Origin: Octopus vulgaris
Taxonomy: Eukaryota
NCBI GenBank assembly: GCA_951406725.2
Contig: OX597823.1
Coordinates: forward strand, 69,812,001 to 69,876,000
Direction of reading: 5' to 3'
DNA length: 64,000 bases
The first letter of the stretch is position 1; each line of letters opens with the position of its first letter. A program made the position numbers and the translations under genes. Below the pieces are notes generated by a model. It searched no databases. It was not told where the DNA came from and saw only the letters and a list, made by a program, of their open reading frames with translations. Shown in pieces: positions 15,740-60,134 of the stretch.

Positions 15740-18010
15740 TCACGTGATTAAGTATTTTCTTGGTCTCGGTCTTTACTTGAGCAAGTGTCAGTCTTTTCTT
15801 GGTTATATATTCGTCTTTTTTAAGTCTGATATTTGTACTTTCTTACTCTATTCTATGTCTTTTCTTTATCTCGTCTCGGCCTTTTCTTAATCTGTTCGAG
15901 CTTTTCCTTGGTCTTATCCCAACCTTTGTTAATCTAGTTTTTGTTGTTTCTTGGTCTAGTCTCGGCTGTTTCTCGTTCTCGTCGCGGCTTCTTCTTGGTT
16001 TAGTCTCAGTCTGATGATGGTAATCCCTCAAGGTCGAGGATGATGGTCTTCGCGCAAATTTACTGGTGAGTCCGTAGGCGACCGATAAGACCAATTCTTG
16101 CTTGAAAAGATCGGTCGCAGTGCGGACATCTAGTGCTGGAAGGGAGAGTCGCATGTGGTTGTTGTTGGCGCTCCTCCCGTCGTCGTCTTTTCTCCTCCAG
16201 CTCTGCAGACCTTTTCGACTCGAAAGTCGCCGTTCCCTCATGGATGGTGGTTTTCCAGAGTGGTCTGTTTTTTGCCGTTTCCTCCCAGTTAGTGAAGTCG
16301 ATGTCACACTTTTTGAGGTTCGTTTTCAGGGAGTCCTTGTAGCGTTTCTTCTGGCCTCCTTTTCTACGCTTGCTGTCTTTGAGTTGGGAGTAGAAGATCT
16401 GTTTGGGAAGTCGTTCGTCAGTCATTCTAACCACGTGGCCGTTCCATCTTAGTTGGCCTTTGCTGACATAGGCTTCGATGCTGGTCATTTTTGCTTCTTG
16501 TAGCACGCTGACGTTTGTTCTTCTGTCTTCCCAGCTGATGTTAAGGATCTCCCGAAGACAGCGTTGGTAACATTTCTCGAGCGTTTTCAGGTTGTGACTA
16601 TACGGGGTCCAGGTTTCGAATGGTTCACATTTTCCAATGGGATTCCTTCGAGTTGAATCGATGGCGGGTTGTCAACACGGGCATTGGGAGGAGGTTGGTA
16701 GAGTAAGTGAGTCTTCTTGATGTTGATGCTCAGTTCAAGTTTAGTATATACATGATGAAAAGCATTTAGGATCTGTTGGAGGTGATCCTCTCTGTAAGCT
16801 GCTACACTGTTGTCGTCGGCATATTGGAACTCTAGCAAGCTTCGCGCCTTTGTCTTTGACGTACTTTTGAGGCGAGCGAGGTTGAAAAGCTTGCCGTCCA
16901 TTCTGTACGAGATCTCGATGCCAGGTGGGAGGTCATCTCGTATGATGTGCAACACTGTCGCGATAAGGATGGTAAAGAGAGTTGGCGCTATCACGCAGCT
17001 ATGCTTCACTCCGGAGGTGACTTTAAAGGGCTCAGAACTGCCTCCGTCGGTCTGGACTCTGGCGTGCATATTGTCGTGGAGGAGTTTGAGGATCCGGATG
17101 AACTTATCTGGGCATCCATACTGGGCGAGAATATCCCAGAGGAGCTCTCGCGAGACACGATCAAAGGCTTTGGATAGGTCGATAAAGACCAAATACAGCG
17201 GTTGGTGTTGCTCACGACATTTTTCTTGTAGCTGTCGCAGCGTGAAGATCATGTCGGTTGTGCTTCGTGATGGCCTAAAGCCGGTCTGCGTCTCAGGAAG
17301 GATCCTCTCTGACAGCGTTTTGAGGCGGTTGTTCAGGATGCGTGCAGGAATCTTCCCAGCAGTTGCTAATAAGGAAATACCCCGGTAATTTCCACACTCG
17401 GATCGTTCTGAGTCTCAGTCTATCTTAGTGTAGTCTCGATTTTATTTTGATTTCGATCCCGGTCTCTTCTTGCTTATGCCTCCGTCTTTTTTTGGTCTGC
17501 TCTCTCTGTTGTCTTGGTCTGTTCTTAGTGTAGCTATGGTCCCGGACGTTTTTTGTCTTAACTCGGTTTTTTCCAGGGCTAACCGTAATGTGTGTTTCAG
17601 TCTCGTTTCGGTCTTTTCTTGGTCTTCTTTCTGTCTTTTTTCACCTGGTCTTAGTGTTTCTTCGATCTCCATCTTTACCTGATCAGGTTTTGGTGTTTCT
17701 TTTTTTTTTACTCTGGTATTGGTCATTTCTCGATCATGGTGTTTTCTTGATCTGGTCTAATTCTTTTCCTGGTCTTTATTGTTATCGGTCTTTTCTCAGT
17801 CTAGTGTCTGTCTCAGTCTTTTCTTGATTTCATCTCAATCTTTCGCTTTTTGGTCTCAATGAATTTTCGGTCTCTGTCTTTTCATCACGTGGTGGTTTTC
17901 GTTGTGGTTTTCATCTCGGCCTTTTCTCCGTACGGCATTAACCTCAGTCTCTTCGTTTGTATTCTATCCTCGTCTTTTCTTCGTTTTGGACTTCTTTGGA
18001 CTTCCCTTTC
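15740..18010. repeat. Degenerate pyrimidine-rich minisatellite (recurrent ttcttggtct/ctcggtct), split by an RTE insertion
   Basis: The same low-complexity motif runs on both sides of the LINE (15740-16012 and 17411-18010). Confidence 0.65.
16013..17410 (-). mobile_element. RTE-clade LINE, 5'-truncated with an internal deletion
   Basis: RT motifs NYRGISLL, GFRPSRSTTDMIFTLRQLQEKCREQ, FIDLSKAFDRV and QYADD; C-terminal RWNGHVVRMTDERLPKQ and CPHC..LRTH; deletion near 16620; 11-bp TSD AGTCTCAGTCT at 16002-16012 and 17411-17421. Confidence 0.95.
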
Positions 18011-20340: not shown

Positions 20341-20626
20341 AAATAATATATTTCTGATTAAACATCGATTTCCAACTTTTACTGATAATGCTTACTGTCA
20401 TATACGTTAAATGAAACGTGTCGAGTAGAATATATTCTATTGAATAGATTACATTAAGTAGAATGCATTGAACAGAATACTTTACCCTGCATTCATGCTA
20501 GATGATTTTATTTTTTATTTAAATAATATAATTGTGGCAAATTGTGTTATTTTTGAGATGCAAAAAATATTCTTTTCTACTCTATGCACAAAACCCGAAA
20601 TTTTTGAGGATGGAGCTAGTCGATCA

Positions 20627-21520
20627 GATCGACCCCAGTACGCAATTGGTACTTAATTTACCGACCCCGAAAGGATGAAAGGCAAAGTCGACCCCGGCGG
20701 AATTTGAACTCAGAACGTAGCGGCAGACGAAATACCTATTTCTTTACTACCCACAAGGTTCTAATCACAGAGGGGACAAACAAGGACAGACAAACGGATT
20801 AAGTCGATTATATCGACCTCAATGCGTAACTGGTACTTAATTTACCGACCCCGAAAGGATGAAAGGCAAAGTCGACCCCGGCGGAATTTGAACTCAGAAC
20901 GTAGCGGCAGACGAAATACCTATTTCTTTACTACCCACAAGGTTCTAATCACAGAGGGGACAAACAAGGACAGACAAACGGATTAAGTCGATTATATCGA
21001 CCTCAATGCGTAACTGGTACTTAATTTATCGACCCCGAAAGGATGAAAGGCAAAGTCGACTTCGGCGGAATTTGAACTCAGAACGTAGAGGCAGACGAAA
21101 TACCTATTTCTTTACTACCCACAAGGTTCTAATCACAGAGGGGACAAACGAGGACAGACAAACGGATTAAGTCGATTATATCGACCCCAGTGCGTAACTG
21201 GTACTTAATTTATCGACCCCAAACGGATGAAAGGCAAAGTCGACCTCGACGGAAATTGAACACAGAACACAAAGACAGACGAAATACCTATTTCTTTATT
21301 ACCCACAAGGGGCTAAACACAGAGGGGACAAACAAGGACAAACATAGGTATTAAGTCGATTACATCGACCCCAGTGCGTAACTGGTACTTAATTTATCGA
21401 CCCCGAAAGGATGAAAGGCAAAGTCGACCTCGGCGGAATTTGAACTCAGAACGTAACGACAGACGAAATACGGCTACGCATTTCGCCCGGCGTGCTAACG
21501 TTCCTGCTAGCTAGCCGCCT
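20627..21520 (-). mobile_element. SINE family A with a 184-bp internal segment tandemly amplified about 5 times
   Basis: Unit starts at 20631, 20815, 20999, 21183 and 21367; a single tRNA-like head ends at 21520. Confidence 0.9.
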
Positions 21521-37443: not shown

Positions 37444-37497
<54 letters not shown>

Positions 37498-37501
<4 letters not shown>

Positions 37502-37780
37502 AACAAAAACGCAATAGAGGGCATTAAAACGTTCGGACAGATAGACGATACAAGGGCGGACAAGAGAAACAACAATTAGAAGGACAGGCAAAAAAAGACG
37601 GGTCATTCTTGGCTTTCTTCCATCAGTCAAGTCCCAGAAGTTATGACCATTTCGGGCAGTTACACTTGAGATGGTTCGATCTGGTTGCCGCCCACCCCAA
37701 AAAAATTCTAAGCTAAACGCATTAGAGCCCTTTGTAAGAAAGCCAGCGGATGTGTACGGCAACAAAGACAAAAAAATGCT
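37498..37780 (-). mobile_element. Short (TA)n-anchored element carrying a permuted hammerhead-like motif
   Basis: Abuts (TA)n at tatatgg; architecture parallels 59805-60110. Confidence 0.6.
37611..37677 (-). ncRNA. Non-circularly permuted hammerhead-like motif
   Basis: gaacca TC tcaagt gtaactgccc GAAA tggtc ataacttctggg acttga CTGATGG. Confidence 0.6.
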
Positions 37781-38080
37781 TTTATCTATTTCAGTCTACT
37801 TATTCCACTCTCAAGGCTTTGGGTAGCCCGTTGCTATAGCAGAAAAAAACACTTATCCTAGGAGTCACGCAGTGGGTCTGAACTCGGAATCATGTGTGGT
37901 ATATAATGTTTGCTTCCCAAAGCAAACTTTTTACTACACAGCCATTCCTGCGCCAGTTGATAGTTAGATAGATAGATAAAGAGAGAGAGAGATACATACT
38001 TACATACATACACACACACATACATACATACATTCATACATACATGCATACATTTATGCACGCATACATACATACATACA

Positions 38081-46055: not shown

Positions 46056-46158
46056 GACAGAAATGGCAAGACAACAAGAGAATGAAAGAGACCTGGATAT
46101 TGCTTGAATAGAGGAATTTATCTGTAAATATATTTTCATAGCATTCTTTTCGATGGCC

Positions 46159-46223
46159 CGATAACTGAAGAGATATCGGCGTGGGTTTCCGCCCGACGAG
46201 ATCCGAAACTGGGAGTTTTATCG
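46159..46223 (+). ncRNA. Type I hammerhead with extended stem II
   Basis: cgataa CTGAAGA gatatcg...cgagatcc GAAAC t-ggg-a GTT ttatcg, flanked by the 13-bp inverted repeat tatctgtaaatat/atatttacagata. Confidence 0.75.
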
Positions 46224-46273
46224 TGGCTGCCGAATAATTGTCACATATCATATTTACAGATATATGTGTGTGT

Positions 46274-59738: not shown

Positions 59739-59940
59739 GTATACATATGCATATATACATACGTATATGTACATACCTACATATCTATGTATATATACAT
59801 GCATATATGGGTACAGGACATCAAATAAACGTAGACACAATGAGAAACGAAAACATAAAAAGCAAAAATACAGAAAGCGAACTTTTTTTCGAACAAAGAA
59901 AGAAAAACAGAGAAACGCGACAGGCAACATAAAGAACATT

Positions 59941-60002
59941 CCGTTCATCAGTTGTCCCCTGTTTTCTCTAATCCGCATTTCGAAGGCAGGGACAATACGC
60001 GA
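59941..60002 (-). ncRNA. Non-circularly permuted hammerhead-like motif
   Basis: tcgcg TA ttgtccctg ccttc GAAA tgcgg attagagaaaa caggggacaa CTGATGA acgg. Confidence 0.7.
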
Positions 60003-60134
60003 CTTCATTAAAACAGTCCTCCCGCAAAGCAAATTAAATAAAATTTAGGACTTTTTGCGGAGGGTGAAAGTGATAACAAAAACAGGATATTTCGTCCGGT
60101 TAGGGTATTTTACACATGCTGAACCTTCGTAATG

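Follow-up and report, generated by a model that had tools for sequence, protein, structure and literature searches.

The minus-strand motif at 37611..37677 of the window, by which we mean the whole 64,000-nucleotide stretch of Octopus vulgaris DNA under analysis (GCA_951406725.2, contig OX597823.1, positions 69,812,001 to 69,876,000), is quite probably a mutated motif of the hammerhead type that closes a non-coding Penelope-like repeat at its 3' end. Its strands come in the order stem II 5' strand, cleavage block, GAAA block and CUGANGA; by this reading intact members of its family likely self-cleave 3' of the equivalent of C37670, and the copy in the window, which carries G in place of A at core position 9 (A9G), is likely slow or inactive. 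Comparison of copies establishes the strand order, the core nucleotides, stems I, II (upstream) and III and distal stem III, these helices by covariation, and the anatomy of the repeat. On that basis the motif is a real and well-covarying hammerhead variant with an unusual opening inside its core, carried on Penelope-like repeats.

The strands that an earlier sequence-only reading of this interval had quoted all lie on the minus strand where it had placed them, as read directly from the window. The cleavage block (block S) runs ACCA (37675-37672), U (37671), C (37670) and UCAAGU (37669-37664), block G runs GAAA (37653-37650) and UGGU (37649-37646), and a 12-nt linker then leads to ACUUGA (37632-37627) and CUGAUGG (37626-37620), which puts G at core position 9. 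Stem II of the window copy is formed by GGGCGG (37693-37688; GGGCA is the family form) and CUGCCC (37659-37654). The features are these:

37686..37693, minus strand: stem II 5' strand carrying G10.1, 5' of the cleavage block; GGGCGG here, GG[G/A]CA in family A (pairing and covariation).
37680..37684, minus strand: distal stem III 5' strand, CCAGA (cognate versus swapped duplex energies).
37664..37675, minus strand: block S, with stem III strand ACCA, U16.1, C17 and stem I strand UCAAGU; predicted cut between 37670 and 37669 (sequence and pair tables).
37646..37658, minus strand: block G, with stem II 3' strand UGCCC (C11.1), GAAA and stem III strand UGGU (sequence and pair counts).
37634..37638, minus strand: distal stem III 3' strand, UCUGG (sequence and duplex test).
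37620..37632, minus strand: one half of block C, made up of ACUUGA for stem I and then CUGAUGG (A9G), without a stem II strand after it (sequence, pair counts and family alignment).
37498..37775, minus strand: the window copy of family A, a non-coding Penelope-like repeat of ~730 nt; 5'-truncated, it covers unit positions 455-729 (89% against a full natural unit in blastn).
37447..37499, no strand: (TA)n tract on which the 3' end of the element lies (repeat detection; most of 30 copies have a tail that is rich in TA or made of another simple repeat).
59945..60022, minus strand: sister motif of the same layout, family B, with stem II GGAGG/CCUUC upstream and distal stem III CUGUUUUA/GAAAACAG; host copy 59803-60087 (pairing and blastn).

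The earlier reading had assigned to this motif and the one at 59941 a common, non-circularly permuted layout. The common layout is borne out by covariation, but a plain S-G-C permutation is not, the chain being opened inside the CUGANGA/stem II block; as judged from the pairing strands, the layout is S-G-C order with block C split between A9 and G10.1. The impression that stem II was not convincing was mistaken: it is a covarying helix of 5-6 bp whose partner strand lies upstream, outside 37611..37677. Pairs were counted in 16 chosen copies (about ten families, both window motifs included, picked among those that parse; related families are not independent). Of these pairs, 94 of 96 form in stem I, 62 of 64 in stem III and 79 of 80 in upstream stem II, and G10.1-C11.1 forms via the upstream strand in all 16. 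The stem II 5' strand starts 37-42 nt before GAAA, 5' of the cleavage block, and stems I and II are joined by a linker of 1-6 nt. When partners were swapped, the paired fraction was 0.62 for stem I, 0.53 for stem III and 0.66 for stem II, and none of 10,000 permutations reached the observed values; for stem II the best-scoring register among 8 offsets was taken, with the same freedom granted to the swaps. Pairs were counted on anchors by script, a cross-family MAFFT alignment having put block S out of register.

These counts bear directly on the idea that the motif is an ordinary type-SGC hammerhead whose weak stem II lies downstream of CUGANGA. The S-G-C order agrees with it, and family B forms 3-4 downstream pairs, mostly G-U; but the same 16 chosen copies make downstream only 27 or 39 of 80 pairs, against 79 of 80 upstream, and family A has at most one downstream pair and covaries with the upstream strand. 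We therefore regard this idea as very improbable and retain the upstream stem II. A less selected set gives the same picture. Stems I and III could be parsed in 38 of 88 core matches gathered without a structural filter, the remaining 50 being truncated or decayed copies or chance matches; of the 38, 26 have an upstream stem II of at least 5 bp and one a downstream stem II. With family A and B copies added, the numbers are 42 and 1 of 62 (from 72 copies, with 8 unparsed and 2 truncated left out). These copies fall into 12 clusters at 80% identity, so that covariation claimed at the outset from two sequences holds far more widely. Within family A, GG[G/A]CA against UG[C/U]CC gives 47 G-C, 27 A-U, 5 G-U, 4 A-C and 6 other combinations among 89 scored, a covariation that probably reflects few ancestral events.

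Past an internal loop, distal stem III is a further helix that, by the duplex comparison, is family-specific and covarying: cognate strands form duplexes of -8.3 kcal/mol and swapped strands of -3.9 kcal/mol, a difference reached by 0 of 10,000 permutations (9 representatives). Type-SGC hammerheads are marked by an extra helix between the outer sides of stems I and II, and distal stem III is a different one. A fourth helix that would bridge the gap between A9 and G10.1 can be drawn but does not come out as family-specific (swap test p 0.38, 9 representatives); in Acropora Naiad tails, a helix of 8 bp across this gap can be made out by eye in the published consensus sequences (PMC8557442 File S5). 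Single-strand and alignment folding, which is blind to crossing stems, gave z-scores of 0.63 and 0.73 and in family A recovered stem III and distal stem III alone.

Could so short a pattern be a chance match in repeat DNA? Rfam is silent and the folding energy is not unusual, which is all that speaks for such an origin. The scan of the whole window and of 37500-37800 returned no hammerhead, just microsatellite-driven miRNA noise, and silence is expected for this kind of fold because its stems cross. In the shuffle control that the sequence-only reading had called for, the descriptor (CUGANGN, stem I of at least 6 bp, stem III of at least 4 bp, C before GAAA) matched twice in the window, at 37626 and 59951, and in none of 300 dinucleotide shuffles, each carried out block by block over 2 kb. 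With a looser descriptor, 2 of 300 shuffles contained a match, neither of them two. Genome-wide, there are 41,044 matches to CGAAA-N21-30-CUGANGA and 7,130 to the reversed control (a 5.8-fold excess), and four helices covary across the 12 clusters. The shuffle control and the pair counts refute the chance reading, to which we assign next to no probability. A type I reading that starts from ACUUGA-CUGAUGA-AA-GAAA was dropped by eye, as the partner of stem I is absent downstream.

The core letters are kept in the sister copies, where CUGANGA is restored, a point that the earlier reading had proposed to check. Among 123 distinct family A copies (100 found via a pattern that fixes CUGA and the others by similarity, with one unparsed copy left out), 117 have A9 and likewise 117 have G8, and only 2 have G at position 9. 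N7 varies, with CUGAUGA in 61, CUGAGGA in 29, CUGAAGA in 20 and CUGACGA in 4 of the 123, and U16.1, C11.1, GAAA, CUGA and G8 are present in all 16 chosen copies. The equivalent of position 37620 is A in 304 of 308 RNA reads covering it. Because sister copies and RNA reads carry A, A9G is private to the window copy, where it breaks, at 37620, the hammerhead core CUGANGA/GAAA/NUH that is intact in family A. We thus share the doubt raised earlier about the activity of this copy. According to the portion of Eckert et al. (2023, PMC10085705) on core mutations, one engineered ribozyme became at least 20-fold less active through a change at position 9, and A9U occurs in a working natural ribozyme. 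Since a position-9 change costs activity, yet a natural ribozyme with A9U works, the window copy is likely impaired and not surely dead. In its minimum-energy fold (z 0.63), from a model that leaves pseudoknots outside, the G-rich upstream run pairs with the cleavage block instead.

The host repeats have the anatomy of Penelope-like elements. The window copy is 278 nt long and departs from the family A majority at 4% of columns. A first look at the genome gave 2595 candidates for family A, 40 of which were scored, and 4640 for family B. Copies of both families have their 3' end fixed on a TA-rich tract and variable 5' ends. The T-rich minus-strand tail leading into a ...CC(AT)n junction, described earlier for both elements, is indeed present in both, at 37499 for the window copy. 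At 20 of 30 full-unit family A loci, chosen via the 5' part of the ~730-nt unit, a partial 3' part lies head-to-tail upstream. Three Penelope-like features, namely 5' truncation, a fixed 3' end and partial head-to-tail tandems, are thus present in family A, as is the (TA)n insertion bias that is a feature of the Naiad clade. An inverted 5'-truncated segment was found beside none of the 30 family A copies, and such segments were seen by eye beside family B copies at L045, L241, L251, L256 and L341. No ORF of at least 120 aa with a reverse-transcriptase motif was found in the 30 full-unit loci. By this anatomy, family A appears to be a non-coding Penelope-like element and, lacking an ORF, is not classed as Naiad in the sense given in the consulted part of PMC8557442. 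The 5' end of the window copy is joined to the head of a very common repeat (37777-37955, minus strand; 68 blast hits in 410 loci). We take this head to be a tRNA-derived octopus SINE.

The cut 3' of C37670, proposed from the sequence, is a prediction supported by analogy with hammerheads, and the 5' ends of copies offer an indirect view of it. If templates are cleaved, copies are expected to begin either at the site itself or 3' of it. Of 70 family B ends (70 of 84 exact matches examined), 30 lie 0-17 nt from GAAA, 8 of them at 14-17 nt, where the predicted cut is at 14, and only 2 lie in the 18 nt beyond (p 1e-7). The other families pooled give 16 versus 4 ends (n=53, p 0.006), based on the 53 of 88 cores that could be assigned. 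Family A differs from family B (p 0.004) and shows no step at the cut: of 100 ends (100 of 192 matches), 12 lie at 0-18 nt and 8 in the 19 nt that follow. The 12 near ends include 2 internal deletions and 1 that falls precisely on the cut, and among the upstream partial copies 8 of 20 start 5' of the cut. All end counts are raw because an automatic flag for internal deletions also marked full-length copies and TA tracts. A cleavage footprint is clear in the sister families and absent in family A, and the window copy is a mutated member of the family with the weakest indirect sign of cleavage. Pausing of reverse transcriptase at the fold could add to such 5' ends. RNA reads (about 6% of each of three raw runs of one study) indicate that both families are transcribed from both strands, with no pile-up of free ends. 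A five-fold rise in depth just 3' of the family B cut was considered as a sign of RNA ends and rejected, as it goes with inversion joints and unlike flanks, and so reflects transcribed truncated genomic copies.

Such observations invite the view that the hammerhead-derived fold is real but that family A no longer cuts usefully, having been kept as a structure for a retroelement protein or as a reverse-transcriptase pause site. The missing step at the cut, a density of ends that is raised all along the motif (20 of 100 lie at 0-37 nt), the span of most copies across the site and the RNA ends without pile-up are all in its favor. We nevertheless think it unlikely, given that the letters of the catalytic core are kept across all families while the stems change, that N7 alone varies in the family A core, and that in the sister families 5' ends step exactly at the cut. 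Still less probable is an active ribozyme assembled from two copies, as a tandem unit or dimer with strands partly in trans. Minimal Penelope hammerheads do need dimers, according to the available text of Cervera and de la Pena (2014, PMC4209133), and family A has head-to-tail partial tandems at 20 of 30 loci; but a single copy can form all stems at fixed spacings (stem II starting 37-42 nt before GAAA), and stem III is long and without a palindromic loop. We prefer a motif that folds within one copy and, in its intact members, likely cuts itself.

How does this layout relate to known hammerheads? In the scheme of Eckert et al. (PMC10085705, as far as its main statements go), a hammerhead consists of blocks S, G and C, and CUGANGA is assumed to remain linked to the strands of stems I and II that belong to it. 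Cleavage in vitro is reported for hammerheads of the non-circular S-G-C and C-S-G orders, and these forms are described in that part of the source as not coming from the genome of any known eukaryote. The octopus motif resembles the type-SGC ribozymes (HRIMA-1 and variants) in its S, G, C order, crossing stems I/II/III, full core and short linker between stems I and II. It differs in that its stem II strand stands 37-42 nt before GAAA, upstream of block S and not after CUGANGA, in an extra distal stem III that links both ends, and in its source, the type-SGC ribozymes being known there from metatranscriptomes and not from genomes of known organisms. The block order is that of type SGC but block C is not intact, and because it is cut in two the motif falls outside this type, though it would act as a hammerhead of the reversed-order class; a break between A9 and G10.1 is the case that the scheme, as set out in the same portion of the paper, assumed impossible. 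The octopus layout shares its cyclic strand order with type CSG, of which it is a circular permutation, whereas in CSG the opening comes after stem III and CUGANGA is still attached to stem II (PMC10085705, same portion).

The order is also the reverse of the circular one of types I, II and III (S, C, G, in a nested three-way junction). The minimal type-I hammerheads in the pseudo-LTRs of Penelope-like elements (PMC4209133, in the text available) have the circular order, a tiny palindromic stem III and dimers; the octopus motif, by contrast, has a long stem III, a reversed order and a chain that opens at the 9/10.1 link. Because a single unpaired base at this link is common in Penelope hammerheads (PMC4209133, same text), an opening there is plausible; such an opening goes unmentioned in the part of PMC3088659 on core insertions. 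The non-LTR retrozymes of bioRxiv 10.64898/2026.07.22.740005, in the preprint's accessible text, are likewise non-coding units that carry hammerheads and are presumed to owe their mobility to Penelope-like elements, but their hammerheads are type I in tandem arrays, whereas family A is mostly dispersed and truncated and carries a rearranged motif. No description of the core-opened layout was found in the literature searched, a scope that has subscription journals and the supplements of PMC10085705 and of the bioRxiv papers outside it.

The closest link to known elements is with Naiads, which Craig et al. (2021, PMC8557442, in its relevant sections) report as lacking canonical hammerheads, with eight 'HHR_half_core' entries flagged, Naiad_Ovul among them, and given there without structure. 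For 40 of the 54 published Naiad consensus sequences (PMC8557442 File S5), we inspected the final ~350 nt by eye. The core-opened layout is present in 6 of the 40 (Octopus 2, Acropora 3, Beroe 1, the last with a short stem I), the Octopus cases being the 3' ends of Naiad_Ovul and Naiad_Obim; an intact C-S-G hammerhead is present in another 6, all nematode (Nbra-1, -2, -3, Hcon, Hpol and Asuum, each with an extra helix), and 28 have neither layout within reach. Type CSG is otherwise known from two metagenomic sequences only, according to the portion of PMC10085705 concerned.

The motif of the Naiad_Ovul and Naiad_Obim tails has 423 exact matches in the genome. Among these 423 loci, 30 were inspected; none has a recognisable Naiad ORF within 1.5 kb, and their 5' ends show no clear step overall; at L398:1490-1510 and at L399, Naiad-type tail copies start right at the predicted cut after a TA tract. 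One motif of the bivalve Naiad tails presumably is twister-like in appearance. In the part of PMC8557442 File S5 seen, hammerhead cores are absent from the bivalve tails, which share other conserved structured-looking motifs. Family A is like the Naiads in its (TA)n target, 5' truncation and partial tandems (PMC8557442, same sections), but has no ORF of the Naiad kind, with N-terminal GIY-YIG and C-terminal reverse transcriptase, and its kinship with them is by layout and target only. The layout and the (TA)n target suggest that family A may be mobilised by Naiad. Elsewhere, among the 18 of 148 GIY-YIG loci that were fetched, the long ORFs have a C-terminal endonuclease, and none of these loci is tied to family A. 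A young Penelope-like family with an intact 781-aa frame, a reverse-transcriptase motif and GIY-YIG at its C-terminus (L093:2545-4887 and L109:2642-4984, both plus strand) recurs many times among the 148 hits, and no hammerhead beside it was parsed with the filters used.

With somewhat less assurance than for the motif itself, we lean toward the view that the core-opened (A9/G10.1) hammerhead is an active and overlooked ribozyme of part of the Naiad clade and of its non-coding derivatives, with tens of thousands of copies in this genome, and that together with the nematode type-CSG tails it forms a circular-permutation series of a reversed-order hammerhead in animal genomes. In such a ribozyme the chain would enter the core at G10.1 and leave it after A9, and the core would be held by the three stems and distal stem III, not by a backbone link between A9 and G10.1. 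Hammerhead cleavage yields a 2',3'-cyclic phosphate and a 5'-OH, and the same products would be expected here. The cut would trim read-through or tandem transcripts and so set the 5' ends of templates, which a Penelope-type, probably Naiad, reverse transcriptase would then copy into (TA)n tracts. Because most copies, that in the window included, span the site, cleavage must be incomplete.

If true, this would broaden the range of wirings known for the small ribozyme that has been studied best. In the portion of PMC10085705 that presents it, the six-permutation scheme rests on CUGANGA being joined to stem II, with non-circular forms not found in known eukaryote genomes. It would also answer the Naiad puzzle of missing canonical hammerheads and unexplained 'half cores' left by the relevant sections of PMC8557442. 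Because families with and without a step in their 5' ends coexist in one genome, the role of cleavage in Penelope-type retrotransposition becomes testable. The window copy by itself is a worn example only.

Several other features of the window were seen along the way. Broken LINE-type reverse-transcriptase frames lie at 16063-17414 (minus strand). A 184-nt unit is repeated in 4.6 tandem copies, 93% alike, at 20618-21471, and we take this unit to resemble a SINE fragment. Finally, by eye, a hammerhead-like motif of conventional type-I order stands at 46157-46229 (plus strand), about 45 nt before a (TA)n tract, with CUGAAGA, a long stem II, GAAA, a stem III of 2 bp, UU and a stem I partner.
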